This document shows, piece by piece, positions 40,801-56,598 of a stretch of 64,000 bases of DNA. This DNA is from Candidatus Poribacteria bacterium (GTDB taxonomy: Bacteria; Poribacteria; WGA-4E; PCPOR2b). The stretch is from positions 3,232,001-3,296,000 of the forward strand of contig OZ244587.1 of the NCBI GenBank assembly GCA_965218095.1. Direction: 5' to 3'. The stretch's first letter is position 1. Every line of letters starts with the position of its first letter. The translations under genes were made by a program, and so were the position numbers. Under the pieces are notes generated by a model, which was given only the letters and a program-made list of their open reading frames with translations, was not told the DNA's origin and made no database searches.

Positions 40801-41634
40801 GTGCTGTTGACATTTCAAGGGAGCCATATAAGAGTGGAGACAAAGCTGAGAAATCCAAAATAACGGACAGCTAACTTCTCGAACCGAGAGAAGATGCGGC
40901 GATACCATTTTATCTTGTTAATGAAACATTCAACCCGATGTCTCTCTTTGTACAGATGTTTGTCGTAATCTCTTTGATCCACACGATGACTTTTGGGCGG
41001 TATCACCGCAATCGCTCCATTTGCCTCAATAACGGCAATAAAATTGTCGGAGTCATATCCCTTGTCTCCAATCACATACTCGCTTTTATATCCAAGTATC
41101 AACGCTTCTGCTTCCGCTATGTCGTTTCTTTGACCGGGCGTCAGATGTATTCTTAGTGGATTACCCAGGACGTCAACGGTGATGTGAATTTTTGTACTGA
41201 ATCCCCCGCGAGAGCGACCTAACGCTTGGTTTTCAGTGCCACCCTTTTTTTTAAGGTGCCCGCTTTTTAAGGTGCCCGCCGCACACGGGTGCGCTCGAAT
41301 GATTGTACTGTCCACAATAAGCGACTCGATATCGGGGTCGGTGGCGAAGTGGGGATGCATCTGTGTGAAGACCCCTTTGTCGCACCACCGAGCAAACTGC
41401 TTATAGAGGGTGTTCGATTTACCATAGGTGTCTGGCAGAATCCGCCATTGAGCACTGCTACGGGTCGCCCAGAGAACCGCTTCGATAAAGCGGCGTGTTG
41501 TCGCTTCGTTGCCAACATAGATGGTGGGACAGCTAAGAAGAAACCGGTATATCTTATTCCATTGTTCATCAGGTAAGGTTATTGGCATCATTCTTCTATT
41601 ATGCCACAACCTTATACTCAAATGTCAACAGAAC
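40801..41634 (-). mobile_element. IS5-family insertion sequence (IS427-like), 834 bp
   Basis: TIRs GTGCTGTTGACATTT / AAATGTCAACAGAAC; CTAG on both flanks (40797-40800 and 41635-41638). Confidence 0.92.
40815..41591 (-). CDS. IS5-family DDE transposase (single open frame)
   Basis: 'IVDSTIIRAH', 'LGRSRGGFSTKIH', 'GDKGYDS', 'YKERHRVECFINKIKWYRRIFSRFEK'. Confidence 0.92.
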   Translation of the reverse strand: MMPITLPDEQWNKIYRFLLSCPTIYVGNEATTRRFIEAVLWATRSSAQWRILPDTYGKSNTLYKQFARWCDKGVFTQMHPHFATDPDIESLIVDSTIIRAHPCAAGTLKSGHLKKKGGTENQALGRSRGGFSTKIHITVDVLGNPLRIHLTPGQRNDIAEAEALILGYKSEYVIGDKGYDSDNFIAVIEANGAIAVIPPKSHRVDQRDYDKHLYKERHRVECFINKIKWYRRIFSRFEKLAVRYFGFLSFVSTLIWLP

Positions 41635-42757: not shown

Positions 42758-43692
42758 TGGGCGCTGCCTGTGTCTGTTATAAAGATGCGGCGGAGGATGT
42801 TATGTTTCGGCACCTGGATAATCTGCCTCACATTGTAGCCCAAACCGATGAGGCGCCCGCTGAGATCTCGTATGTCGACAAAAGCGCATTTGGACGCGAT
42901 ATAGCGGATGTTCTGCAAAATTTCCTCGTCTCGTGAGATGTCACTGGTTAGCATGATGCCGTAAGGTAGATCTGTCGCCACGGCATCGAATCGTCCACGG
43001 ATTCGGCGTGCATCGCCAAGACAGACTTTGGCTGTCAAACTGTAGTAAGCTAGATTTGCCTGTGTCGCCTTGACCATGTTTGGGTTGATATCATATCCGA
43101 CAACATCCATCCCCATTTGTGCTGCTTCTAACACGATTGTCCCTGTGCCGCAACAAGGGTCAACAAGTCGATCATTTGGGGAAGCAATCAGATTCACTAT
43201 CGCCCTCGCAAGCCTTGTGGGGAGTGAGCTTGATGTAACACGGGGGCGTTTTCGGTGGGCAACCCACCTACCGTCTGACTCAGACAAAAGCCTTCCGAAC
43301 CAGATCTTTCTGCTTGTCACCACAGTTAAAAAAATGACGCGTGGCTGCGTCAAACGAGCCCTTCCGCCGATAACCCCCCCGACTGTGTGAGCCATTTTCA
43401 TTGTATCCACTCGCAGATTACGTGGAAGCCGAATAACAGATACACGAAAATCCTCTGCGTGTAATTCAGCGGATTTGATTTGTGCACATATCTCCGCCAC
43501 GCTTCCCCCCTCAAATAAGATCTCCATGCAGCTCTTGACATAAGCGCCCCGCTTGACATCAACGCACCTCTCCGAAATCGCAATTCCATAAGAATTTGGC
43601 GCATGGCCGGTTAATGCACGGGACTCTGCATTGATTAACTCTGTGTCTTGATTGGGGATCGCTGTCAGGTAGAGGTAGCTTCGGGTGGACAT
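42754..43692 (-). CDS. Trm11/UPF0020-like SAM-dependent RNA methyltransferase
   Basis: 'SSLPTRLARAIVNL', 'DPCCGTGTI', 'TDLPYG'; promoter TTGACA-N17-TACTAT at 43725-43753 (-). Confidence 0.85.
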   Translation of the reverse strand: MSTRSYLYLTAIPNQDTELINAESRALTGHAPNSYGIAISERCVDVKRGAYVKSCMEILFEGGSVAEICAQIKSAELHAEDFRVSVIRLPRNLRVDTMKMAHTVGGVIGGRARLTQPRVIFLTVVTSRKIWFGRLLSESDGRWVAHRKRPRVTSSSLPTRLARAIVNLIASPNDRLVDPCCGTGTIVLEAAQMGMDVVGYDINPNMVKATQANLAYYSLTAKVCLGDARRIRGRFDAVATDLPYGIMLTSDISRDEEILQNIRYIASKCAFVDIRDLSGRLIGLGYNVRQIIQVPKHNILRRIFITDTGSAH

Positions 43693-44137
43693 CTTTCCTA
43701 TCCTTATGAAGGGCTGATGCCGGGATAGTATCACAATTCCTCGAAGATGTCAATGAGGAGAAACACAGTCATTCTCCAGTACCCGAGCCGTTCAATAATC
43801 TCTCAGCCCGCCATCCGGGGCAATCAGCGCCGGACGGTCATAAGGTTGCGGCGGGTAATGTTTGAAGGCCTCTTCATTATCAATGATAAACTGACACTTT
43901 TGCCATCACGACGCAAATTTGGAGGAACTCGTAAACCGACTGAATTTAACCCGATTTAATATTGCGCGTTTTTCACCGATATGCTATAATCGGGTTTCCA
44001 ATTGCTTGGTTAAGTAATTTTCAGTATTAAGTATTTTATAAATAGTTTGTTTAACTTTCAGTCCAGGGACTCCGCTCCTGGCACGGATCCATGTAGATGA
44101 AAGAAATTATAACTTACTTAAACTATACATTCCGTTT

Positions 44138-44210
44138 GTAGTCGCGCAATTGATTGCGCGTTTGGGACAGCGATGAATCGTTTCACTACAAACCATTACT
44201 TTCTTTCTGA
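44138..44210 (+). repeat. REP-like element, left direct repeat of the RM island
   Basis: GTAGTCGCGCAATTGATTGCGCGTTTGGGA...TCACTACAAACCATTACTTTCTTT; matches 56494-56598. Confidence 0.8.
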
Positions 44211-44211
44211 T

Positions 44212-44368
44212 ATGGCGCGAAGGAAGCGCACATCCCAAGAAACAGAAATCCAAGATTACCGACACGAGGCCGCCACCCGAAAGAACAATCCACCTGTGGG
44301 CATCGCCTCACACGGCGTAATCCGCGAAACACCGAAGCAGAAATACGCCTACAACCCCACCTGCCGCC
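44212..44368 (+). pseudogene. Truncated 5' copy A of type III mod gene
   Basis: MARRK...QDYRHEAATRKNNPPVGIASHG.IRE.PKQ.YAYNP; homologous to 48339-48496, with a 1-nt deletion in the C run. Confidence 0.85.
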
Positions 44369-44461
44369 AAGTCTACCGCCCTGCAGCAGATGTTGAGAGC
44401 ATCTCCACGCTATGGTATAATCCGAAGCCGTGTGGAATGTGTAACAGACCGTTGCCGGTGA

Positions 44462-44734
44462 TCAGGTGTTTTTGACTTCGCTCAGTCTTTTTCCGGTGTG
44501 ATGGGCATCGGTAGGCCTGTCCTTGGATGCGAGTGGGTGTGCTAAGTTGTAATCCACACCTTGCGTGACGCGGACAACGCCCTTTGAAGTGGCAACAAGG
44601 CGGTCATATTCTGCTAAAAGCCGATGGTTGATCTTCGGATTGTTTTTGATGGTAATCATGTCAGTTCTCTCTGAAGTCTTCTTTCCGACATCCTCTGCTG
44701 GAGAGGGAATAAGGGATTGGCATGAGTTTCTCAT
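44462..44734 (-). CDS. Small hypothetical protein (copy A)
   Basis: RBS AAGGAGG; 'NNPKINHRLLAEYDRLV...DYNLAHPL'; paralog of 46906-47232. Confidence 0.7.
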   Translation of the reverse strand: MRNSCQSLIPSPAEDVGKKTSERTDMITIKNNPKINHRLLAEYDRLVATSKGVVRVTQGVDYNLAHPLASKDRPTDAHHTGKRLSEVKNT

Positions 44735-44759
44735 TGTAAACCTCCTTATAATTATATGA

Positions 44760-44871
44760 TAACCCAAGTTGCTACTCTTTGGTTAGTAGTAGCGCAATTC
44801 ATTGCGCGTTCTTCTGTTCTTCTTTGCGTCCTTGCGTTCTATTTTTCTTATCAAGGTAGCAACTCGGATTA
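44760..44871. mobile_element. MITE-like element containing a REP half
   Basis: Terminal IRs TAACCCAAGTTGCTAC / GTAGCAACTCGGATTA (14/16) enclose GTAGTAGCGCAATTCATTGCGCG. Confidence 0.5.
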
Positions 44872-44955
44872 TAATATCATGATTTTGCATTTAATACCAG
44901 CATTTTATGCTCACCACTAACGAATATGCTTGATTTTAATATCTGAGATAATCTC

Positions 44956-46113
44956 ATGGCTGAATACATTCAAGGGATTAATCCCACCATAGTCAAGTGG
45001 GCGAGAGAACGCTCAGGATACACCCTGCGAGAAGTCGCCAAATTCTTCAAGAAGAATGTCGAAACCATTGCCAATTGGGAGTCTGGGGCAGCTGCGCCGA
45101 CTTATGTTCAACTTGAAAAGCTGGCTGACAAATACAAACGACCCGTCGCCATGTTCTTCTTCCCGGAACCTCCCAATGAGACCGATTTTGTGGGACAACT
45201 TGCACTGCGAAGCTCCGAAATTGAGCAACTGGATCCAGGTATCCGTATTCTGTTGCGTCAGGCATACGCAAGGCAACTTTCATTGATGGAACTGAACATG
45301 GACGTGAATCCTGTAGAAACAAAAATTTTCCGCGATCTTCACCCCCAACTTGGCGACTCACCAACAGAGTTGGCACAACAAACCCGAGCGTACTTGGACA
45401 TAAGCGTTGACACGCAAGCAGGCTGGAATAGCGCGAAAGAAGCACTCGGAAATTGGCTAGAAAGTGTTGAGGAAAAAGGTATCTTCGTTTTTAAGGCTGC
45501 CTTCCAAAACGACTCCGTTGATGGCTTTTGTCTCGTCCACGAGCAGTTTCCTGTTATCTACCTCAACAATAGTAGATCGTCTGTCAGACAGATTTTCTCA
45601 CTCTTTCATGAGTTAGCTCATCTCTTACTCGGTGAGAATGGTATAACACGAGGCATCAACCCTGTAGGTGAGCAAATTGAGGTCTTTTGCAACCAATTTG
45701 CTGCTGAATTTCTGGTGCCGTCTGGCGATCTGGAACCCCGACTCAGCTATCCGGTTTACAATGACGCTGCAATAGAGGAGTTGGCAAGTTACTATAAGGT
45801 GAGTCGTCCTGTCATTCTGCTGAGACTGATTAATCAGGGCACCCTCAAACAAAACAGCTACAGGCGGAGGGCCGCCCGATGGACTGAAGAGTACGAATCC
45901 CGCCTAGAAGGAAGGGCAGGAGGTGAATCCCCAGGCGGAGGAAACTATTATAACACCCACGCAGTGTATTTAGGATACAAATTTATAGAACTTGCGTTCA
46001 GCAGATATCATCAGGGACAGTGTTCAATGGAAGAACTTGCAGAACATCTGAGCGTCAAGGCTAAAAACTTGCCTGGTCTCGAAGATTGCCTATTGAGGAA
46101 GATAACCCGCTAA
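44956..46113 (+). CDS. XRE-HTH + ImmA/IrrE metallopeptidase
   Basis: N-terminal HTH 'WARERSGYTLREVA...NWESG..PTYVQLEKLA'; HExxH 'RQIFSLFHELAHLL'; 'EVFCNQFAAEFLVP'. Confidence 0.92.
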   Translation: MAEYIQGINPTIVKWARERSGYTLREVAKFFKKNVETIANWESGAAAPTYVQLEKLADKYKRPVAMFFFPEPPNETDFVGQLALRSSEIEQLDPGIRILLRQAYARQLSLMELNMDVNPVETKIFRDLHPQLGDSPTELAQQTRAYLDISVDTQAGWNSAKEALGNWLESVEEKGIFVFKAAFQNDSVDGFCLVHEQFPVIYLNNSRSSVRQIFSLFHELAHLLLGENGITRGINPVGEQIEVFCNQFAAEFLVPSGDLEPRLSYPVYNDAAIEELASYYKVSRPVILLRLINQGTLKQNSYRRRAARWTEEYESRLEGRAGGESPGGGNYYNTHAVYLGYKFIELAFSRYHQGQCSMEELAEHLSVKAKNLPGLEDCLLRKITR

Positions 46114-46583
46114 TGGCTTACGTATTTGACACCAACAGTTTTAGGGTGCTTGGGAACTACTATCCTGAACAATTTCCAACTTTTTGGGAAAAATTCAATC
46201 AGGCAGTAACCTTTGGAAAGATAATCTCTGTGAGAGAGACCCGCAGGGAACTAGAGTTCCAAGTACATCATCCCCATTTATTTGATTGGGTGAAAGATTA
46301 CGGACATCTTTTTTTGTCCCCTCGACCAGCGGAAATGCAGTTCGTCAGTGATATTTTTTCTGTTTCACATTTCCAAACGTTAGTGAATGCGAAAACTCGT
46401 TTACTCGGCCAACCGTGTGCAGATCCGTTTATTATCGCAAAAGCGAAGTTCATAGATGGTTGTGTTGTCACAGAAGAAAAGTGGAAGCAAAACGCTGCGA
46501 AAATCCCGAACGTTTGTGAGCATTTTGAGGTGGACTGCACAAACCTCCAAGGGTTCATGGAAAGAGAGGGTTGGACGTTCTAA
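46113..46583 (+). CDS. DUF4411 family PIN-like nuclease
   Basis: 'YVFDTNSF...YYP..FPTFW', 'ADPFIIAKA', 'VVTEE', 'KIPNVC'; coupled to the upstream gene by TAATG. Confidence 0.88.
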   Translation: MAYVFDTNSFRVLGNYYPEQFPTFWEKFNQAVTFGKIISVRETRRELEFQVHHPHLFDWVKDYGHLFLSPRPAEMQFVSDIFSVSHFQTLVNAKTRLLGQPCADPFIIAKAKFIDGCVVTEEKWKQNAAKIPNVCEHFEVDCTNLQGFMEREGWTF

Positions 46584-46648
46584 CTTTGCTCGGTATTGAC
46601 AAGCAACAAATCCCTAACCCCGGAAACTCAGAAGAAGGAAAGAAAGAT

Positions 46649-46840
46649 ATGGCACGAACGAAACGCCCTGCCAAAAAGCAGGAAACCGAAACCCAAGATT
46701 ACCGGCACGACGACGCCACCCGAAAGAACAACCCGCCTGCGGGCATCGCCTCACACGGCGTAATCCGCGAAACACCGAAGCAGGAATACGCCTACAACCC
46801 CCACCTGCCGCCAAGTCTACCGCCCTGCAGCAGATGTTGA
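46649..46840 (+). pseudogene. Truncated 5' copy B of type III mod gene
   Basis: MARTK...QDYRHDDATRKNNPPAGIASHG.IRE.PKQEYAYNPHLPP, then diverges and stops. Confidence 0.85.
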
Positions 46841-46905
46841 GAGCATCTCCACGCTATGGTATAATCCGAAGCCATGTGGAATGTGTAACAGACCTTTGCC
46901 GGTGA

Positions 46906-47232
46906 TCAGGTGTTCTTAGCTTCGCTTAGGCTTTTTCCAATCTCACGGGGATCAGTGGACACGTCATTGGATCCAAGTGGATGTGACAGATGGTAATCTG
47001 CACCTTGTACGACGCGGACAATACCTTTTGAAGCAGCAACAAGGCGTTCATATTCCTCAGTCACACGGTAGAATTCTGATAAAAGTTCATGGTCAATCTT
47101 CGGATTGTTTTCGACAGTAATTGTGTTAACCCTTTGTTCGTGCGGTGTAGAAACCTCTACAGCTCTCTCAGAAGTCTTATCTCTGACATCCTCTGTTGAA
47201 AAGGAGATAAGGGATTGGCGTGAGTCCTTCAT
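46906..47232 (-). CDS. Small hypothetical protein (copy B)
   Basis: 'NNPKIDHELLSEF...YERLV...DYHLSHPL'; directly downstream of the ClpP-like protease. Confidence 0.7.
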   Translation of the reverse strand: MKDSRQSLISFSTEDVRDKTSERAVEVSTPHEQRVNTITVENNPKIDHELLSEFYRVTEEYERLVAASKGIVRVVQGADYHLSHPLGSNDVSTDPREIGKSLSEAKNT

Positions 47233-47253
47233 TGTGAACCCCCTTGTCTTTGA

Positions 47254-48108
47254 TCAGAAGTATTTGCAGGTGTGCACAAACGAGCCTCCTTGAATATAAT
47301 CTTTGAGCAGCCCAACGTAGTTATCAAGAACAAGGGAGAGGTTGGGGGTATCTTCCAACTTCTCGATTTTCAAGTTTATGTCCGGATCCGAGGTTAGTAT
47401 GTCTCTGGAAATCATGCGTCCATGAGAATGCCAACGTTCATTATCACTCAACATAGCTGCAATCTCTTTTGCTCTTTGCTTCTTTTCATCTTCCGTCACA
47501 GTTGCTCCAGTTGAACTGTGGGTCTTCCAGTTCTTGAACTTATAGGTGGAGAGCCATTGAGTCAAAAGATCGTGCGACAACTGGCGTGCTTGTTCAAATT
47601 GGTCAAGCTCACCCAAGTCAAGTTTGTTGAGAAGCACCAGTTCGGCAGTGTTCAACTCGCCAGCCTCCGCTTTTGCGTGCAGCCGCTGATACTGGTTTAA
47701 ATACGACAAGGCTGGAACAAGTTTTTCGTCCTTCACAATTTGGGGATCGATGGGCCCCAAACACGAAAAGTAGCCCATGAAGATCCGGTCGCCCGCCATC
47801 ACGAAAACTGTACCGGCGGACATGGCTCGGTCAGGGATCAGGAAGTCAACTGCAGCATAGTAGTGGCGAATAACAGACACGATACGTTCAACTACTTCGA
47901 CTATGCCACCAGGCGTGTCTAAGACAATCGCTATTCTGGACTTTCGTTTTTGGAACGACTCAACAGCACTCCTTACTCTATTCTCTAAACCGTACAATAT
48001 CGGACTGAAGATTGTAAGCGCGTCTGCTTTGAGAATTTTTTCAATCTTGCCGAGATACTTATTGAGTTGGGTATTTGTGTGATGATCGACCGGGCGGAGT
48101 GTTACCAT
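47254..48108 (-). CDS. ClpP/crotonase-like serine protease (SDH_sah / SppA-like)
   Basis: 'LDTPGGIVE', 'AMSAGT', 'LGPIDPQ', 'WHSHGRMI'. Start placed at MVTLRP. Confidence 0.88.
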   Translation of the reverse strand: MVTLRPVDHHTNTQLNKYLGKIEKILKADALTIFSPILYGLENRVRSAVESFQKRKSRIAIVLDTPGGIVEVVERIVSVIRHYYAAVDFLIPDRAMSAGTVFVMAGDRIFMGYFSCLGPIDPQIVKDEKLVPALSYLNQYQRLHAKAEAGELNTAELVLLNKLDLGELDQFEQARQLSHDLLTQWLSTYKFKNWKTHSSTGATVTEDEKKQRAKEIAAMLSDNERWHSHGRMISRDILTSDPDINLKIEKLEDTPNLSLVLDNYVGLLKDYIQGGSFVHTCKYF

Positions 48109-48166
48109 AGTTTTTCTGATTGGGCTAAATCGCCTCCTTAGTTTTAAAGGGTTTATATGGTATAAT

Positions 48167-48249
48167 GATATTATGATATCATAAGATATTATTATATCAT
48201 AATTTGGCACTATATGCCATAATTTGGCACTATATGCCGTAATTTGGCC
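48167..48249. repeat. Tandem 18-bp x2 and 20-bp x2.5 palindromic repeats in the divergent protease/mod promoter
   Basis: GATATTAT(G/T)ATATCATAA x2; CATAATTTGGCACTATATGC x2 plus a partial third copy. Confidence 0.85.
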
Positions 48250-48338
48250 CTTTGTACCAGCGAAAATTTTATACTCACCACCAGCATCCGAAACCACTTT
48301 AGGGGCGTGGACCCCTAGCCCTATAAGGAAACAATTTA

Positions 48339-51281
48339 ATGCCAAAAAATCCCCAAAAATCTAACGAGAAAGGCGTCGAAGATTACCGGCACGACGCTGC
48401 CACCCGAAAGAACAACCCGCCCGCGGGCATCGCCTCACATGCGAAAATCCGCGAAAAACCGAAGCAAGAATACGCCTACAACCCCCACCTGCCGCCGTGC
48501 CTGCAATTCGACGAAAACGGCGACGCCGACCAACTCCCCGAATTGCTCGAAAAGGCGCGACATAAACCGCTCTCCGCCGATGAGGTGCAAATCCTCGCAG
48601 AGGCACTGAGACACCACGGTCCATGGATCGAATGGGCGGGCAAACAGGAGGCGGAATCGTTCGCTGTCGATCCGGTTGCGTTGCACATCCACGAGCGGGT
48701 AAGTACGAAAGCCATTGTGAAAGTGGCAGAGCGGGAAAACGTCCAACGCGAGCTCTTTGCCGACCCGCAGCAAGAATACCGGGAGGCAGTGCAGTTTTAC
48801 CAACACGATGTGGATTGGACGAACCGCCTCATCTTGGGCGATAGCCTCACCGTGATGAGTTCTTTGGCACGACGTGAAGACCTCGCGGGCAAAGTCCAGA
48901 TGATTTACATCGATCCACCCTACGGCATCAAGTTCGCCTCAAACTTTCAACCCACTGTCTTCCAGCGTGATGTGAAGGAAAAACCGGCTGACCTGACCCG
49001 CGAACGGGAGCAGATTAAAGCCTACCGCGATACGTGGACCCTCGGCGTTCACTCCTACCTCGCCTACCTCCGCGACCGGCTGATTGTCGCCAAAGAGTTA
49101 TTGACCGATAGCGGTAGCATCTTTGTGCAGATCGGTGATGAGAATATTCATCGGGTGCGATGTCTAATGGATGAGGTATTTGGGGCAGAAAATTTTATAG
49201 CCCTCATTCCATTTCAGACAACAACCGGGCTTCAAAGTCGTTACCTTAAAGGTGTCTATGACCTTATTATTTGGTATGCAAGAGAAAAAGCAAATATGAA
49301 GTACAAGCAACTTTACTTAGAAAAACAAACAGGGGCGAATACATATTATGACTATATGAAGTTACCAAACGGATCAATTCAGAAAACGCAAGAGAGCGAA
49401 GAAATCCCTGATAACTGGCAGATATTCTCACCTCAACCTCTTGTTTCAGGTGCATACTCAGAAACGACAACTTTTGAGTTTCCTCATAACAATACTTTAT
49501 ATCATCCCGGTAGAAATAGGTGCTGGAAGACTACTCCTGAAGGAATGAAAAGATTATCAAAGTCTGAAAGAATATTTGCATCTACTAAAACATTGAAATT
49601 CATTCGCTATGCTAATGATTTCCTTGTTACAGAGATATCAAATCTTTGGACAGATGCGATGAGTCTCATTGGCAAAAAATATGTTGCTGAAACAGTCCCT
49701 AAAATTATTGAGCGTTGTATGTTAATGGTGACAGAGCCCGGCGATCTGGTTCTTGATCCGACTTGCGGTAGTGGTACGACTGCTTACGTTGCTGAACAAT
49801 GGGGTAGACGCTGGATTACTATTGATACTAGTCGCGTTGCTATCACATTAGCACGCCAAAAACTTCTTACCGCGAATTTCAATTACTATCAACTCAAAGA
49901 CGGATTAGAAGGAGTTTCAGGTGGCTTTGTCAACAAAACGGTCCCGCATATCACCCTCAAAAGCATTGCTCAAAATACTGCACTTGATCCGATATTCGCA
50001 AAATATGAGCCGATTCTCGCGGAAAAGTTAGAAACCCTCAATCTTGCCCTAGCAGAGGTTACGCCAGAGATTCGGACTAAACTCCGTTCCAAACTTGCGA
50101 CGAGGGAACGGAGCAAAGGGAAAAAGGCGGTCACGGATGTGGACCGACGGCGTTGGCAGCTCCCGAAAACGACGTGGCAGGAGTGGGAGGTGCCGTTTGA
50201 CACCGACCCCAATTGGCCCCTAGCGTTGAGTGAAGCATTAACCGATTATCGCGAGGCGTTCCGAGCAAAGATGAACGAAGTAAACGGCTGCATCGCCGCA
50301 TCTTCCGATGGCGAGGAATTGGTCGATCAGCCGGAGGTAGACAGAAAGAAGCTGCGGGTGAGTGGGCCCTTCACGGTGGAGGCGGTACAACCCGCTGAAG
50401 CATCACTCGACCCCGATTCACCCATCGGCGGTGAACCGGAAGAAGCACTGGACACATTCGAGTCTGACGACGTTGAGGGTGAACCCACTAACGCCGAAGC
50501 GTATCTTGATCAAATGATTCGTCTGCTGCGAAATGACGGTGTACGTTTTCCTGATAACCAGAAAATGAAATTCGCGGCACTCGATCCACTTGAGGATGAT
50601 ATTCTGCACGCCGAAGGGAGTTGGGAAGGTAACGATGCGGAGCGAAACGTAGCGGTAGTGTTTGGTCCACAGCACGGTCCCGTCACAGTGATGCAGGTTG
50701 AGGCGTGCTTGCCTATTGCGTCTCGGCGTGGATATGATGAACTAATCTTTGCTGGCTTCAGTTTCGACGGTGCGGCGCAAGCGGTTATCCGAGAGGACCC
50801 GCATCCAAGGGTCCGTATCCACATGGCACACATCAACCCCGACGTAACGATGGGCGACCTACTAAAGGAGACGCCTTCCAGTCAACTGTTCACTGTGTTT
50901 GGGGCGCCGCGCACAGCAATCGAAATGATAGGGAACGGTGAGTATATCGTCAAGATGGAGGGGGTGGATATTTACAACCCCGTAGAGAACACGGTGAGTT
51001 CTGCAGGCGGTGACAAGGTGGCGGCGTGGTTCCTTGACAGCGACTACGACGGTCGAACCTTCTGCATCACCCAAGCGTTTTTCCCCGACAAAAAGGCGTG
51101 GGACAAAATAGCGAGAGCACTCAAAGGCGTTATTGACCCAGAGCATTTTGAGAAGTTCAGTGGAACCGAATCGTTTCCGTTCCCTGCCGGGGAGCACCGG
51201 AGCGTCGCGGTCAAGGTGATTGACCCGCGGGGGAATGAGGTGATGCGGGTGCACGATTTGCGGGAGACAAGGTATGCTTGA
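48339..51281 (+). CDS. mod: Type III R-M DNA methyltransferase (Mod, beta class)
   Basis: 'NRLILGDSL', 'MIYIDPPYGI', 'LVLDPTCGSGTT'; AT-rich central TRD at about 49140-49920. Confidence 0.93.
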   Translation: MPKNPQKSNEKGVEDYRHDAATRKNNPPAGIASHAKIREKPKQEYAYNPHLPPCLQFDENGDADQLPELLEKARHKPLSADEVQILAEALRHHGPWIEWAGKQEAESFAVDPVALHIHERVSTKAIVKVAERENVQRELFADPQQEYREAVQFYQHDVDWTNRLILGDSLTVMSSLARREDLAGKVQMIYIDPPYGIKFASNFQPTVFQRDVKEKPADLTREREQIKAYRDTWTLGVHSYLAYLRDRLIVAKELLTDSGSIFVQIGDENIHRVRCLMDEVFGAENFIALIPFQTTTGLQSRYLKGVYDLIIWYAREKANMKYKQLYLEKQTGANTYYDYMKLPNGSIQKTQESEEIPDNWQIFSPQPLVSGAYSETTTFEFPHNNTLYHPGRNRCWKTTPEGMKRLSKSERIFASTKTLKFIRYANDFLVTEISNLWTDAMSLIGKKYVAETVPKIIERCMLMVTEPGDLVLDPTCGSGTTAYVAEQWGRRWITIDTSRVAITLARQKLLTANFNYYQLKDGLEGVSGGFVNKTVPHITLKSIAQNTALDPIFAKYEPILAEKLETLNLALAEVTPEIRTKLRSKLATRERSKGKKAVTDVDRRRWQLPKTTWQEWEVPFDTDPNWPLALSEALTDYREAFRAKMNEVNGCIAASSDGEELVDQPEVDRKKLRVSGPFTVEAVQPAEASLDPDSPIGGEPEEALDTFESDDVEGEPTNAEAYLDQMIRLLRNDGVRFPDNQKMKFAALDPLEDDILHAEGSWEGNDAERNVAVVFGPQHGPVTVMQVEACLPIASRRGYDELIFAGFSFDGAAQAVIREDPHPRVRIHMAHINPDVTMGDLLKETPSSQLFTVFGAPRTAIEMIGNGEYIVKMEGVDIYNPVENTVSSAGGDKVAAWFLDSDYDGRTFCITQAFFPDKKAWDKIARALKGVIDPEHFEKFSGTESFPFPAGEHRSVAVKVIDPRGNEVMRVHDLRETRYA

Positions 51282-51470
51282 TTCGTATCGGGTAACTCAA
51301 TGAGGGTTGTTCATTATTCTGTAGGAGGGACTCCCTATCCTGATTATCGGGGCGATAACTTCTCCGACACAGTGGGGTGGAAGGACGCTCGCGTGCCTCC
51401 TTGCTTGTCTGAATCACGGATTAAACAGATGACGCAGACGACACGGATTAAGAACCGATTGAACATTCGG

Positions 51471-51551
51471 ATAAAAAATCCGCGAAATCCAATAATCCGC
51501 GCAAATCCGCGATTCAGACACTCTCCAAGTTTGACAATTTCTCATACAATA
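51471..51551 (+). repeat. ~80-bp direct repeat, copy 1 (mod-res spacer)
   Basis: ATAAAAAATCCGCGAAATCCAATAATCCGCGC.AATCCGCGATTCAGAC....CCAAGT...CTCATACAATA; copy 2 at 52233-52313. Confidence 0.85.
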
Positions 51552-51967
51552 CAATCAGGAGGCAGAAAATGAATAAGAATCACGACAACCTTTGAGGGAG
51601 ACAATCTGCACCGTCAATCCTAACGACAACTGTTACGACGCCGCAAAATGGGATAAGCAATTCCGGGCTAATGCAGGCGAATTACCTCCGGGAACTGGAG
51701 AAGCGTTACCAACAACTGGCATCTAAGGCAGCGAGCGCATTGAACGCCGCGCATGACAGTCTGGAATCTACAATTCCATCCCTTAGCCCAAAAGAGCAAA
51801 TTTCACTTGTTCCAGGGGATTTGAGCGTTCAACTGCGTAAGTTCTACATATTAATCGTCAACGCAAATCTTTATCAGTTGTGCACGCCAACTTTTTTTTG
51901 CGTTGGCATTGTGTTGGCATTCTTTATGAAATACAACCCTAAATTCATAGGACTTACGCAGTTCAGC

Positions 51968-52167
51968 TTGTAGTAGCGTAATTCATTGCGCGTCCGGACA
52001 GGCGATAAATCATCCTACTACAAATCTCGATGCCGTTGTCTTGATGCTTTGATGTAGGAAACAACGATCGTTGTTCCCTACGGAATCGGGGGTTCTCGGT
52101 AAGAATTTATTGTAATTGCCCGATTCATCGGGCGTTGTAGTACGGCGATGAATCGCCGCACTACAAG
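51968..52167. repeat. Cluster of REP-like GTAG...CTAC palindromes
   Basis: GTAGTAGCGTAATTCATTGCGCG...CTACTAC; GTAGGAAACAACGATCGTTGTTCCCTAC; GTAGTACGGCGATGAATCGCCGCACTAC. Confidence 0.7.
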
Positions 52168-52232
52168 TTGCTTTGAATCCCGATCTCTGCATTGGGGGCT
52201 TTGAGCATTCGACTGCGTGAGTCCTAATTCTA

Positions 52233-52313
52233 ATAAAAAATCCGCGAAATCCAATAATCCGCGCGAATCCGCGATTCAGACAGTTTCCAAGTCCAACAAC
52301 TCCTCATACAATA
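52233..52313 (+). repeat. ~80-bp direct repeat, copy 2
   Basis: Near-identical to 51471-51551; directly upstream of the ATG at 52331. Confidence 0.85.
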
Positions 52314-52330
52314 TGATTGGGCAGCAGCAG

Positions 52331-53485
52331 ATGAGTAAGAACATGAAAAAATTTATAGCCTGCCTACTATTGGGGGCACTGCTAGGAATGATACCCCCTC
52401 TGTTGCCTGCACAGCAGAATCAAAACACGCAAAAGTCGAATCCGGAAATTGAAGCCCTTAAAAAACGGGTTTCGGAACTGGAACAACAGCTTCAGACTGT
52501 GGAAAATGTTGAGAAGATGGATCTTGCAAGAAACTACGCTGATGCAAAAGCGAAACTTATTAATGTGGATGTTGACAAGCTTAAGTGGGAATTGAGGGAT
52601 TCTAATCATAAATGGCTGACAGGATGGATTTTATTCTTCCTAGCGATTTTATCTGCTATTGGGGTAGGTGTTTGGTCTTGGCTTAAATCTAGAACTAATC
52701 AATTGATAGAGACTGAAGTTGAAAAGAATCTCAATGGGTTTAAGGAGGCTGTGGGCCAAGTAGACACACTGAAAAATCAACAAAAGGTATTAGAAAAAGA
52801 ACATGTAGCTGCTATGTTAGATAGTATTGCTGACAAACCCTATGGGCCCAGATATTCTTATCCTGAACGAATCAAAGCACTTTCTGAAGAAGCTCTTTTA
52901 TGGGTACTTGACGATGAAATATACGGTCGAGTAGTCAGATATCTGGCAGCAGAAGTTTTAGCTAATAGAAAATCTCCTCAATTGCCTTCTCTCTTGCTTA
53001 AATTCTTAAATTCAGTTGTTGATTGGGAAAAAGACCGACTTGAAACGTATACCTTTGCCCCACTTTCCCTGATACATTTTCTCGAAGAAATATACACGCA
53101 CGAGGTCTATCAAGGACTTAAAAGATTCCTCAACCGTTTATTGACAGAAAATCCAAAAAACAAGGATTTGTTCCTACCGGAGACAGTATCTTCACTCGCT
53201 GGAATTGGTGTTAAATTGAATATGGGAGACTCGGTTCCCATACTGAAAACAGCTATACCTCATTTGAAGAATCCAAGCCACAAGGTCCTAAGTGACTTAG
53301 CTAGGTATTTTGATATATTCAATGAACCAGCAGGTATAAAGGAAATCCTAATCAATCATGTAACAAGTGAGAGGTCTGGTATGGAGGAGGTAGAGAATAG
53401 ATGCTTAGAACTATTGCAAAAGTACGGTCCCGCGTTTGTAGCAGAATGGCGAGCAAGAGCAACAACAGATAACAGCAACGCATAA
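52331..53485 (+). CDS. Hypothetical membrane protein (signal peptide, coiled coil, TM, HEAT-like helical domain) inserted between mod and res
   Basis: 'MKKFIACLLLGALLG' signal, coiled coil, TM 'WLTGWILFFLAILSAIGVGVW', 'RYLAAEVLA'; lower GC. Confidence 0.75.
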   Translation: MSKNMKKFIACLLLGALLGMIPPLLPAQQNQNTQKSNPEIEALKKRVSELEQQLQTVENVEKMDLARNYADAKAKLINVDVDKLKWELRDSNHKWLTGWILFFLAILSAIGVGVWSWLKSRTNQLIETEVEKNLNGFKEAVGQVDTLKNQQKVLEKEHVAAMLDSIADKPYGPRYSYPERIKALSEEALLWVLDDEIYGRVVRYLAAEVLANRKSPQLPSLLLKFLNSVVDWEKDRLETYTFAPLSLIHFLEEIYTHEVYQGLKRFLNRLLTENPKNKDLFLPETVSSLAGIGVKLNMGDSVPILKTAIPHLKNPSHKVLSDLARYFDIFNEPAGIKEILINHVTSERSGMEEVENRCLELLQKYGPAFVAEWRARATTDNSNA

Positions 53486-53494
53486 GGATCCCTC

Positions 53495-56400
53495 ATGAAT
53501 CAAGACCAACTCGAAATCCCAATCCAACCCGTTGAACGTCCCATCCTGTGCAATCCCTATGAAGAACCGGACGCACATTGGGTTTACGATACTGAAACCG
53601 GCGAAGCGATCAAGCAGCCGGGCAGACGCGCTGCGGGGTACTGGTACAAAACACAACGCACAGGCAGTCAGCAACTCCAACTCTTTCAAGAAGAAGAGCG
53701 GGATGACCTGCCATTAGTCAATGCGCTGCGCGATGATGTCAGGAGATGGCGTGAATCAAATTACCGAAACGCAACGGTTGTGACGCGGGAATTGCTGCGC
53801 CACTGGACGCGAGAAGACAAGGAACGCCGCCTCTTTTTCTGTCAGTGTGAAGCGGTTGAAACGATCATATACATCGCCGAGATCCGGCAGGGGTGCAAAA
53901 AGACCGGCTTTAACCCGCAATTTACGAAGGCGGATCTCGCTAAATTGGTTGATTCTCCCAACACCCCTAACATCCCGGATCTAATCCGCTACGGCTGCAA
54001 AATGGCGACCGGCAGTGGCAAAACGGTGGTGATGGCGATGCTGATTGCGTGGGCGTTCTGCAATCGCGGGAAAGTGCCTTCCGATGAGCGTTTCCCCGCG
54101 GCGGCGTTGATCGTCTGTCCGAACCTGACAATCAAAGAACGGCTTCAGGTCTTGAGACCCGAATCCCCGGATAACTACTACGATGCGTTTGAACTCATCC
54201 CGACAAAACTCCGCCCCTTGCTCAACAAAGGGAAAGTGCTTGTGACCAACTGGCACCAATTCGCGCCGGAGTCCGCGCACAGCGAAGGTGGTCAAAGTTA
54301 CGCGGTCGTGAACAAAGGCGAAGAAACACCGGACGCCTTTGCAAAGCGCGTGTTGGGTGAACTACATGAACACGCTCCGATCATGGTGATGAATGATGAG
54401 GGACATCACGCCTACCGTCCCGCACCTACCGATGAAAAGCTATCCGCTAACGCCAAAAAGGGACGTCAAGATGCTACCGTCTGGATTAGCGGCTTGGACA
54501 CGATTAATCAAGCGTGCGGCATCCGTTTCTGTGTAGATCTCTCCGCCACGCCGTTTTATATTCAAAACAGTGGTCACCCGGAAGGCTCCCCCTTCCCGTG
54601 GCTCGTGAGCGATTTCGGGTTGGTGGACGCAATTGAGAGCGGCATCACGAAGATTCCCCGATTGCCGGTCAGCGATACGACGGGCAGACCTGAACCGAAA
54701 TTCTTCCGACTCTGGGAAGCAATTCAGGAAGAAATCCTGCCAGCGGATCGACTGCCGGGCAAAAAGCCGAAACCGGAGGCGGTCTATCGTGAGGCGGAAG
54801 ACGCACTTAACACCCTCGCCAGTCAGTGGAAAGAACGTTTTGAATACATCGAGCAGGCATCGGATGCCCAAGAGAAAACGCCCCCTGTAATGATCATTGT
54901 CTGCGACAACACCAATATCGCGGAGCACTTCTTTGAAAAAATCTCCGGCGAGGAGGTCGTTGAGTTTGATGTAGGGGCATCCCTTGTGGTTGCCCACAAC
55001 CAAGGAAAAGGAAAAAAGAAAAAACAGACCCAAACTGTCTACGGACAAGGGCAGGTATTTCCCGACATGCTATCAAACAGCGAAGGCATTTCACGAACCC
55101 TGCGAATTGATAGTAAAAAACTGGCTGAGGCGGAAAGCGAGAACCCACAAAAGAACAAGACGCAGGCAGCAGAGGACTTGCGTCGCGTGGTCGCAACAAT
55201 CGGAAAGCCGGGGCAGCCCGGGGAACAGATTCGATGCGTTGTGTCTGTGGCGATGCTGAACGAGGGGTGGGACGCGAATAACGTTACCCATATTCTGGGA
55301 CTACGCGCCTTCAGCAGCCAATTGCTCTGTGAGCAGGTGGTCGGGCGCGGATTGCGCCGCATGAATTACACGCCAGACCCGGAAACCGGGCTGTTGACCG
55401 AGGAATATGTCGATGTATACGGCATCCCGTTTTCTGTGATTCCATTCAAGGGACGCCCTAAGAACAAGCGTGAGCCCATTGACAAACCGAAAAACCACGT
55501 CCGGGCGATGCCAGAGCGGGAAAAGGACTTTGAGATAAGATTTCCCATTGTTGAAGGATACGTTTTCGCACTTCAAAAAGATGAAATCAAGGCAGATATT
55601 AAAGCGATTGAACCGCTGATCCTTGAACCGGAATACACACCGACCGCCGTTTTTGTCAAACCAACAGCCGGCTATGAAATCGGTTTGCCAACCACCTTAC
55701 GCCCCGGTCCAGCTATACTTCAAGACCGCGAAGAATATTACAAGGCAACACACATTCAAGCCATCAAGTTTGAGATCTCCCGCCGGATCATTACGGCATT
55801 AGTCGGTGATCGTGAAAACCAGCCAGATCCAAATAGCAATCCTAAACTTCGGCTGCAATCTCGACACCGGTTGTTCCCTCAAGTATTCAGGTTGGTTGAT
55901 AACTATGTGGAAACAAAGGTAGATCTTCGCTATTGTCATCCGTGCGAGCTCGGACAAGAAAAATATGTAATTCGTATCGTTGAACGGCTTATTGCTGCGA
56001 TTCAGCCCAATGAGACACAGGGTGAAATTCCACTAATGCCTATCTTGAACCGTTACAAACCGATTGGTTCATCATCAGAAGTAGACTTTATGACCGCGCG
56101 TCCTTGTCAGGGGACACAACGGAGTCATATTAATCAGGTTGCGCTGGACACTCAGACATGGGAACGCGCTGCTTGCTTTGGACTAGAGCAATCTGAGGTT
56201 GTGGCGTACTATGTTCGGAACGATCATCTGGGGTTCGGCATTCCGTATGAGTATACCGGCGCTTCTCACAGTTATGAACCGGATTTTATCGTCCACCTCA
56301 AGAACGGTGTCAACCTAATTTTGGAAATCAAGGGCTTTGAAACCGAGCAAGACCGTGCCAAACATACCGCTGCTAGACGGTGGGCATCCGCAGTCAGTAA

Positions 56401-56497
56401 CTGGGGAAGGCTTGGAAAATGGGAGTTTTATCCTTGCAAAGACCCTCAACGGATGCGGCACGAATTGGCGTTTTTAGGACGTAGTAGCGGTTCGTAG
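53495..56497 (+). CDS. res: Type III restriction endonuclease Res subunit (BPTD_3080-like)
   Basis: 'KMATGSGKT', 'NDEGHH', 'DLSATP', 'MLNEGWDA', 'EQVVGRGLRR', PD-(D/E)xK 'YEPDF...LEIKG'. Confidence 0.93.
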   Translation: MNQDQLEIPIQPVERPILCNPYEEPDAHWVYDTETGEAIKQPGRRAAGYWYKTQRTGSQQLQLFQEEERDDLPLVNALRDDVRRWRESNYRNATVVTRELLRHWTREDKERRLFFCQCEAVETIIYIAEIRQGCKKTGFNPQFTKADLAKLVDSPNTPNIPDLIRYGCKMATGSGKTVVMAMLIAWAFCNRGKVPSDERFPAAALIVCPNLTIKERLQVLRPESPDNYYDAFELIPTKLRPLLNKGKVLVTNWHQFAPESAHSEGGQSYAVVNKGEETPDAFAKRVLGELHEHAPIMVMNDEGHHAYRPAPTDEKLSANAKKGRQDATVWISGLDTINQACGIRFCVDLSATPFYIQNSGHPEGSPFPWLVSDFGLVDAIESGITKIPRLPVSDTTGRPEPKFFRLWEAIQEEILPADRLPGKKPKPEAVYREAEDALNTLASQWKERFEYIEQASDAQEKTPPVMIIVCDNTNIAEHFFEKISGEEVVEFDVGASLVVAHNQGKGKKKKQTQTVYGQGQVFPDMLSNSEGISRTLRIDSKKLAEAESENPQKNKTQAAEDLRRVVATIGKPGQPGEQIRCVVSVAMLNEGWDANNVTHILGLRAFSSQLLCEQVVGRGLRRMNYTPDPETGLLTEEYVDVYGIPFSVIPFKGRPKNKREPIDKPKNHVRAMPEREKDFEIRFPIVEGYVFALQKDEIKADIKAIEPLILEPEYTPTAVFVKPTAGYEIGLPTTLRPGPAILQDREEYYKATHIQAIKFEISRRIITALVGDRENQPDPNSNPKLRLQSRHRLFPQVFRLVDNYVETKVDLRYCHPCELGQEKYVIRIVERLIAAIQPNETQGEIPLMPILNRYKPIGSSSEVDFMTARPCQGTQRSHINQVALDTQTWERAACFGLEQSEVVAYYVRNDHLGFGIPYEYTGASHSYEPDFIVHLKNGVNLILEIKGFETEQDRAKHTAARRWASAVSNWGRLGKWEFYPCKDPQRMRHELAFLGRSSGS
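54971..54995 (+). repeat. REP-like palindrome inside the res coding sequence
   Basis: GTAG + GGGCATCC-CTTGT-GGTTGCCC, read in frame as VGASLVVA. Confidence 0.7.
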
Positions 56498-56598
56498 TAG
56501 CGCAATTGATTGCGCGTTTGGGATGGTGATGAATCATCCCGCTACACGGGATCTCGCTACGCTAGAGACCTCACTACAAACCATTACTTTCTTTTTGA
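56494..56598 (+). repeat. REP-like element, right direct repeat of the RM island
   Basis: GTAGTAGCGCAATTGATTGCGCGTTTGGGA...TCACTACAAACCATTACTTTCTTT; supplies the res stop codon. Confidence 0.8.

Follow-up and report, generated by a model that had tools for sequence, protein, structure and literature searches.

In the 64,000-nucleotide (nt) stretch of the Candidatus Poribacteria contig OZ244587.1 (GCA_965218095.1) analysed here—the window, whose positions give the coordinates below—the 5′ end of mod, the methyltransferase gene of a type III-like restriction–modification (R-M) locus of the BPTD_3080 family, occurs three times in direct orientation, and different genes follow the first and the second copy. 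This array probably consists of recombination scars left by the stacking of two alternative heads (i.e., the gene sets found upstream of mod) of one and the same R-M locus. The reading draws on the anatomy of the array, the colinearity of its units with the loci of relatives, a mosaic of identity between the first two copies, and the rarity and varied breakpoints of mod stubs across the order to which this bacterium belongs.

The mod 5′ end was recovered at 44236-44358 (copy A), 46679-46801 (copy B) and 48363-48485 (copy C) and nowhere else in the genome, which is one contig of 6.35 Mb (E 5e-33 to 7e-134). The copies start at 44212, 46649 and 48339, and at the nucleotide level B is 92% and C 81% identical to A. 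These direct repeats of the end of the target gene bound the units, and only the last copy runs on into mod:

44118..44211, no strand assigned: dispersed repeat like a miniature inverted-repeat transposable element (MITE) or repetitive extragenic palindrome (REP), abutting the ATG of stub A (genome blastn)
44212..44374, forward: stub A, mod codons 1 to ~55 (MARRKRTSQETEIQDYRH...YAYNP), ending after AAGTCT
44375..44461, forward: junction J, copy A (87 nt); 44393-44421 resembles a sigma-70 promoter
44462..44767, reverse: small open reading frame (ORF) A, 101 amino acids (aa) as listed; likely start ATG 44734, as in family members
44956..46113, forward: fused XRE-type helix-turn-helix (HTH) and M78 (ImmA/IrrE, DUF955) peptidase (Pfam, PADLOC)
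46086..46583, forward: DUF4411 PIN-like protein (Pfam); ATG 46113 is the start used in relatives
46649..46818, forward: stub B, mod codons 1 to ~57; the ORF ends inside J (...HLPPSLPPCSRC*)
46819..46905, forward: junction J, copy B, with a promoter-like site at 46837-46865
46906..47232, reverse: small ORF B, 108 aa
47254..48108, reverse: SDH-type ClpP-fold serine protease; the listed ORF reaches 48345, and the likely start at 48108 is taken from relatives (287-290 aa; alignment A2)
48153..48259, no strand assigned: AT-rich iterated repeats in the divergent SDH-mod intergenic region
48339..51281, forward: intact mod, 980 aa, with an N-terminus of type MPKNPQKSNEKGVE, as after SDH in relatives
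52217..53485, forward: conserved 422-aa ORF between mod and res, at the same place in many relatives (tblastn)
53495..56497, forward: res, 1000 aa

Copies A and B share additional sequence, to ~44747 and ~47245, which takes in the small reverse ORFs. Within it, the two copies of J differ at 2 positions in 87-88 aligned columns and are the only occurrences of J in the whole genome; each holds a predicted promoter (TTGAGA-17-TATAAT with TG, 11/12 matches), the best in 43700-48600, directed at the 3′ end of the small ORF. The frame of stub A is shifted by the loss of 1 nt after 44354 (the missing C is present in contigs of sequencing runs X5 and X7), and stub B keeps the native upstream region of XRE/DUF4411-linked mods. 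The break at 44374 and 46818 falls inside conserved mod sequence (...LRFDxxGDADQLPELL continues) and not where homology ends.

Much of this had been described in a first-pass annotation of the window: three mod starts with only the last complete, a shared A/B stretch with a promoter and a small reverse ORF, and XRE-ImmA/IrrE plus DUF4411 (A) or a ClpP-like protease (B) as cargo. The genome-wide search, the promoter-like match in both copies and Pfam bear these points out. That A and B break from mod at one point also stands, but the point had been given as CCACCTGCCGCC, and since HLPPSLRFD is the reading in relatives' Mod proteins, to which stub B aligns by blastn as far as query position 172, we place the end 6 nt later, after AAGTCT. 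The claim that the structure is no assembly duplication agrees with the diverged copies, the single contig and the contigs of two other studies.

Those two studies supplied runs X5 and X7, whose Logan contigs span 44342-44835 (i.e., the end of stub A, J and small ORF A) with 4-5 differences, while run X1, which is maybe the source sample, gave identical pieces over J-small ORF A and J-small ORF B-SDH. The X5 and X7 contigs offer little or no cover of 46973-48141 (unit B), gaps in such contigs not being evidence of absence, and contigs of RNA run X17 cover parts of 44635-46805, which is no proof of transcription. An X7 contig (depth 4.4, ~90% identical) joining 46812 to 48502 was read as a relative's XRE/DUF4411-type mod and not as an excision product, and joints at 44161-44822 and nearby stem from the dispersed repeat.

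Heads of the locus among relatives

We scanned 159 genomes of the order, including that of the window (G000), for the mod 5′ end, and mapped 36 loci: the window, 20 + 6 + 6 from genomes of the order and 3 metagenome contigs. The mapped loci were picked from best and double matches, so the set is not random. A complete or remnant XRE-M78 gene lies upstream of mod at 14 of them, the small ORF at 16 and the SDH protease at 11; none of the three is present at 11 loci, and mere remnants at 2. XRE-M78 with DUF4411 and the small ORF with the SDH protease are the two usual upstream partners of the BPTD_3080-type R-M locus in this order. In genus g4, alternative heads occupy the same chromosomal site, the flank of G021 being syntenic with those of G014, G015, G018, G019 and G027a.

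The units of the window have close counterparts among these heads. The segment 44874-46812 (XRE-DUF4411-P1-stub B, P1 and P2 being the promoter regions of the two heads) is colinear with XRE-DUF4411-mod 5′ of G008, G019 and G021 to +158/+164, and the stub B stretch with DUF4411-mod 5′ of G019, G014, G008 and G021 to ~+166; 46964-48938 (small ORF B-SDH-P2-mod) is colinear with G027a (82%). The extreme N-terminus of each mod 5′ copy also matches the module in front of it: KKQETE[IT]Q stands after XRE/DUF4411 in the mods of G014, G015, G018, G019 and G021 and in stub B, and SNE[KR]GVE stands after SDH in the G021 stub and in mod C of the window. Given this colinearity and pairing, the window resembles three heads placed directly one after another, with truncation of the first two.

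Such composites are rare. The mod 5′ sequence is present in 77 of the 159 genomes, with two matches within 10 kb in 3 of the 77 (G000, G021 and G090), and stacked modules occur in G000 and G021 only. XRE-M78 and SDH stand together at four loci (the window, G021, G063 and metagenome contig L050). Both G063 and L050 have the window's order, XRE-DUF4411-small ORF-SDH-mod, without a stub; in G063, tblastn gave a weak match (E 0.18) for Mod residues 18-37 in the gap from DUF4411 to the small ORF, which on inspection was rejected as a stub. The order in G021 is the opposite of that in the window (small ORF-SDH-stub-XRE-DUF4411-mod); its stub ends at ~nt 102, after GIASH, versus ~nt 171 in the window. 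Beyond that point come 76 nt that duplicate, at 93%, a segment lying 3 kb upstream, and after these a dispersed repeat.

The remaining stubs are of other kinds. G090 holds a tandem duplicate of mod without residues 66-885 (contig L043, 9705-11716), G125 a mod(1-37)-res(669-994) fusion (L044, 9808-10880), and G120 a small ORF-SDH-mod(1-33) arrangement followed by housekeeping genes; the stubs of G125 and G120 are deletion remnants. Breakpoints differ by genome (~nt 99, 102, 113, 171 and 195). Taken together, the order-wide scan and the anatomy of G090, G125 and G120 indicate that stubs are rare, that they end at differing points and that several are plain deletions.

The slot between the small ORF and mod is variable; across the 36 loci it holds SDH, XRE plus DUF4411, unknown ORFs, a 7 kb block or nothing, i.e., differing content between conserved flanks, as at a variable-cargo hotspot. 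Its cargo includes unknown ORFs of 292 and 110 aa in G118 and of 448 aa in G033. In G154 (L052, 9250-15576), SDH and mod are separated by a 7 kb block of PIN_4-like, BrxC-D-like ATPase, TGT-family (DpdA-like) and IS3 transposase genes, and a mod stub is lacking.

These comparisons also separate what holds from what does not in the earlier description. The differing extreme N-termini proved real, each matching its preceding module in relatives; units do each end in a mod 5′ copy, and cargo in the slot does vary among relatives, where stacked stubs are limited to G000 and G021. Repeated integron-like integration, by contrast, does not agree with regular partners, rare stubs and varied breakpoints, and the notion of arbitrary, swappable cargo fails at the window itself, where both cargoes are regular conserved partners of the R-M family.

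Recombination history of the array

Identity between A and B is unevenly distributed. Their first 37 nt hold 8 mismatches and a 6-nt indel; there are then 7 differences in 49 columns (44249-44297), 4 in 165 (44298-44461) and 57 in 171 in the 3′ part of the small ORFs (Fisher p for the shifts, 0.0035 and 5e-15), such that ~98% identity is confined to the distal mod 5′ part and J. In the distal part, A and B are identical at 76 of 78 positions and about equally far from C and all relatives. In the proximal part, B is nearer C (41/44) than A (38/44), which is what a crossover within the mod 5′ homology should produce. Such a mosaic is the mark of a recent exchange, one of whose borders falls within the mod 5′ homology and the second at the small-ORF stop codon. 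The ~98% patch thus suggests that the common breakpoint of A and B was inherited from one joint, and it is not evidence of a site-specific cut.

The locus exists in the order with alternative heads, either an XRE-HTH/M78 fusion plus a DUF4411 PIN protein or a small disordered protein plus an SDH-type ClpP-fold protease, and both the promoter region and the first ~15 mod codons are particular to each head. In the history that we favour, one illegitimate joint would first fuse mod at nt ~171 to foreign J, 3′ of a small ORF; the truncated resident mod 5′ end would stay behind as a stub, while the mod 5′ end of the incoming DNA would keep mod intact. The stub could then act as the left and mod as the right homology arm for ordinary homologous (unequal) recombination—a step made possible because the stub is homologous to any mod 5′ end—and a second J-small ORF-module-promoter-mod 5′ unit would be inserted without replacing the first. 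Stacking might have taken a single step, in which an allele stub-J-small ORF B-SDH-P2-mod met an allele stub-J-small ORF A-XRE-DUF4411-P1-mod, with the left crossover between stub and mod 5′, the right crossover in mod, and hybrid stub B left over. The G021 composite indicates that one-sided illegitimate events do occur at this locus. We infer the order of events and the recombination pathway, as well as the lack of a function of the stubs themselves.

Several observations weigh against this history. The donor of J was not traced by genome blastn, in the 158 other genomes of the order or by exact scans, which makes the illegitimate joint a matter of inference. Order-wide blastn found J in 0 of these 158 genomes; exact scans with a 23-nt piece of J gave 0 matches in metagenome contigs and 0 in genome contigs, two collections that may not include the records of this genome itself; and the native 3′ flanks of the small ORFs in G021, G027, G042, G033 and G057 show no likeness to J past ~10 nt. 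Rfam (43000-53000, E up to 1) likewise gave no match to J, the sole entry being a sub-threshold Yfr1 at 52114-52159, outside the array. At least two recombination steps are required to place nearly identical copies of J next to small ORFs with 52% identity, and the cargo in relatives' slot between small ORF and mod is diverse. Among 16 full-length mods, synonymous codon identity is highest in codons 1-30 (0.70 versus ~0.5-0.6 elsewhere), which hints modestly that the 5′ end has been homogenised at the DNA level. Finally, short proteins similar to the stub B peptide were sought in public assemblies, with 41 matches, mostly frameshifted or truncated mod starts, and one of these, P0043 (63 aa, on a 10.7 kb contig of another assembly), ends with the J-encoded tail ...PPSLPPCSRC and joins a B-type N-terminus to an A-type middle. 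Stub-J is thus present in at least one further recombinant form, and its repeated recombination leans toward the platform account given below.

Many of the remaining short ORFs (P0044-P0083) are mod starts frameshifted a few dozen codons in, several with the same out-of-frame tail; these could be genuine pseudogenes or stem from homopolymer errors in long-read assembly.

P0043 lends itself to a different account, an active stacking platform free of recombinase, in which the mod 5′ segment and the stubs serve as portable homology arms and J-small ORF-cargo-promoter-mod 5′ units are repeatedly inserted, exchanged and deleted; J would supply an outward promoter, and selection would keep the array to gather defence or regulatory modules before mod. 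The architecture of the units, the crossover signature inside the stub, the near-consensus promoter within J and the variable slot cargo of relatives all fit, and so do P0043 as a third, hybrid J-type stub in another assembly, the stub A-J-small ORF A contigs of two other studies and the two independent composites, G000 and G021. We nevertheless consider this account unlikely: J is found in 1 of the 159 genomes of the order, only two cargo types stand behind stubs and both are regular partners of the R-M family, breakpoint and joint differ in G021, loci with both modules exist without a stub (L050 and G063), and no same-strain deletion or circle joint was seen in Logan contigs, which cannot reveal rare forms. 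A further claim, that the first ~170 nt of mod and the stubs form a functional analogue of an integron, driven by homologous recombination without a dedicated recombinase and active now in the symbiont population, draws on P0043 and on the stub-J contigs of other studies; it is a shade more doubtful again.

Less probable still is a tandem duplication within the lineage, in which unequal crossing-over of stub and mod 5′ would have doubled stub-J-small ORF-cargo-mod, and allelic homologous recombination would then have replaced the small ORF and cargo of one copy. This would yield the same hybrid stub B and the same identical J, and G090 shows that tandem duplication does occur at the locus; however, it takes one step more than a single unequal exchange of two stub-J alleles, and one genome cannot separate these histories.

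Site-specific accretion of integrase-less islands, integron-like or of the type of cis-mobilizable elements (CIME), with a recombinase acting in trans on a core site at the stub end, would account for direct gene-end repeats between tandem units and for the breakpoint common to A and B. It is a poor candidate. As the first-pass annotation had said, no dedicated integrase is in view: the tyrosine recombinase family PF00589 has 8 matches in the genome, none of them in the window and the nearest at genome position 3073338, ~159 kb from the window start. Single-strand folds of J and of stub+J are not significant (z -0.86 to 0.01; a dedicated attC model was not run), and no inverted repeat was seen at the unit borders. 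The breakpoints of G021, G120, G125 and G090 differ, and the common A/B breakpoint is explained by the recent shared patch. Last, although repeats of 120-170 nt can mislead assemblers, an artefact that duplicated the mod 5′ end is so improbable that we set it aside: the X5 and X7 contigs that bridge stub A, J and small ORF A and the single 6.35 Mb contig make misassembly very unlikely, contigs of three runs cover the stub A-J-small ORF A or J-small ORF B joints, the copies differ (81-92%) and have different flanks, and P0043 is an independent J-type stub.

Under the stacking of heads that we favour, the array would show two alternative accessory modules of one defence locus combined rather than exchanged, and a truncated gene start from one illegitimate event would have become a homology arm for later insertions. 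Should such events prove common, stubs of gene starts could help to recognise defence islands in which modules were once stacked.

Module proteins and adjoining sequence

The proteins of the locus fall into recognisable families. Mod matches N6_N4_Mtase (Pfam, 9.6e-33) and MTase_III (PADLOC, 1.3e-171), and Res the BPTD_3080 restriction endonuclease family of NCBIfam (958 bits versus a cut-off of 800) and ResIII of Pfam; an N6_N4 methyltransferase Mod followed by a helicase-domain Res is the make-up of a type III R-M system of this family. The XRE-M78 protein matches HTH_3 (3.9e-8) and Peptidase_M78 (3.7e-24) in Pfam and RmrA (2e-31) and capP (3e-17) in PADLOC, and its neighbour matches Pfam DUF4411 (4.9e-28). 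For the SDH protease, Pfam SDH_protease (2.8e-14) and phrog_11747 (5e-54) agree, the NCBIfam model Clp_like_SDH scores below its cut-off, and a sequence search of PDB gave 0 matches. No convincing family was found for the 422-aa ORF in Pfam, NCBIfam or PHROG.

The small ORFs A and B encode proteins that are 52% identical and belong to a family without a match in Pfam, PADLOC, NCBIfam or PHROG. Their core (alignment A1) reads ENNPKID..LL..YERL..SKGV.R..QGADYNL[AS]HPL[AG]S.D.PTD, and the C-terminal motif GADYNL.HPL..PTD is duplicated in four members (P0013, P0022, P0024 and P0040), a doubling that recalls repeated core peptides or repeated protease sites. An AlphaFold2 (AF2) model of small protein B has three helices at low confidence (mean predicted local distance difference test, pLDDT, 59.6), and ESM Atlas returned no match at >=0.9. 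A complex prediction of SDH protease with small protein scored 0.00, and as it was run without controls, it weighs neither way. The family is present in 36 of 176 genomes of the phylum, limited to three families of the order, and its ORF is nearly always divergent from mod; a profile search of metagenome contigs with A1 gave 3 loci.

The small ORF-SDH pair is not tied to the type III system, as it also stands beside other R-M methylases: divergently upstream of a different methylase (HSDR_N_2+N6_Mtase+Eco57I) in G093 (L059, 6480-10274), and near a similar methylase in G090 (L058, 9349-14285), there with a transposase gene between and with DUF4145 and HsdS present. Viral contig L062 (5947-7022) encodes a homologue of the SDH protease whose best segment reaches 52% identity; a 79-aa ORF comes after it. 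By eye only, that ORF has NN..[IV]D and NHPLES motifs like the small-ORF core; its neighbours include IS3-type transposase genes and a long repeat-rich protein. Going by gene neighbourhood, the modules most likely serve the R-M system as accessories for control or back-up, such as protease-based switches or elements resembling toxin–antitoxin (TA) systems, and the small ORF-SDH pair would be a portable protease-based accessory module of R-M systems. The small protein and its SDH-type protease constitute an uncharacterised two-gene module that stands divergently upstream of two kinds of R-M methylase and occurs on a viral contig as well; as it alternates with or joins the HTH-metalloprotease module at the same position, it is a candidate for a protease-based element that controls or backs up restriction systems.

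Between SDH and mod, 48153-48259 holds three 20-nt tandem units and a TGGCA-N5-TGCCA palindrome, and small ORF-SDH-mod relatives have repeated ...CCATAA... motifs in the same intergenic region (by eye). These repeats are possible operator sites. The palindrome itself was rejected as a conserved operator, the exact motif occurring in the window alone among 26 upstream regions. The dispersed repeat next to stub A belongs to a ~93-nt MITE/REP-like element with at least 30 copies in the genome (78-94% identity, blastn) and a palindromic core GCGCAAT..ATTGCGC; its copies in the window (44118-44211, 44778-44810, 51962-52024 and 56490-56546) occupy several intergenic gaps of the R-M locus. A 32-nt repeat at 44130, 44778 and 51962, considered as an operator or att site, was rejected as part of this element and not specific to the array.

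Downstream, codons ~300-450 of mod (49240-49690) are highly variable among the 16 full-length orthologues (amino-acid identity 0.21-0.40 versus 0.6-0.9 elsewhere), the pattern shown by target-recognition domains that have been swapped. The 277 nt at 51621-51897, between mod and the 422-aa ORF, recur at four other genome sites with 87-91% identity and represent another repeat family or the remnant of a small mobile element. The 5′ end of the 422-aa ORF has a partial duplicate ~650 nt before the ORF (51467-51580 versus 52227-52341, 83% at the nucleotide level); part of the duplicate also matches short repeats elsewhere in the genome, and G027 and G018 retain this fragment alone. The locus is flanked by housekeeping genes and one DDE transposase gene of the IS4/IS5 family (DUF4096+DDE_Tnp_1) at 40815-41621, reverse strand, 2.6 kb left of the array; this is the sole mobility gene seen nearby.

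Comparison with known systems

The literature searched, in one library, holds no description of mod 5′ stub arrays or of an SDH-protease/small-protein module next to R-M systems; the array is best placed by comparison with better-known arrangements. Integrons consist of the integrase IntI and attI/attC cassette arrays, with promoterless, co-oriented cassettes expressed from the promoter Pc. The array resembles them in that its units stand in order before a fixed point and have a repeated element at their borders, but that element is the 5′ coding fragment of a gene, the units have their own promoters, and only two cargo types are stacked. No IntI is adjacent, no attC-type palindromes bound the cassettes (judged by the folds of J and stub+J given above), and genes lie on both strands with their native upstream regions kept.

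CIME-type islands are integrative elements that lack an integrase and accrete in tandem at gene ends through a site-specific integrase supplied in cis or in trans. They share with the array the gene-end direct repeats between tandem units and the intact gene at one end. Unlike them, the array has no evident integrase or att core, its breakpoints vary among genomes, and its repeats are 5′ ends with 81-98% identity and a crossover signature, which points to general homologous recombination. The recombinase search of the window and the varied breakpoints gave no sign of a site-specific integrase with a fixed core site, trans-acting enzymes being possible. Homology-facilitated illegitimate recombination, which combines one homologous anchor with one illegitimate joint, accounts for a resident mod 5′ end that is cut short and continues into foreign DNA equipped with another mod 5′ end; G021 fits it well, whereas the window needs an extra homologous step that copied stub-J.

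Defence and horizontal-transfer hotspots (PMC10250203 and PMC5635113) have variable content between conserved flanks, and its exchange is attributed to recombination in the flanks. In the array, by contrast, the flanks are parts of the defence system itself (small ORF and mod 5′ end), and stacking leaves stubs. Unit A also has a parallel in the part of PMC5499597 that describes HTH-DUF955(M78)+DUF4411 as a three-component TA-like arrangement: its fused HTH-M78 gene stands directly before the DUF4411 gene, with the same domain set and gene order. The XRE-M78 protein is further likened to CapH/CapP-type protease regulators by its PADLOC capP match. Overall, the array would combine known kinds of event: cargo exchange at a hotspot, one-sided illegitimate recombination, and accretion with duplicated gene ends.

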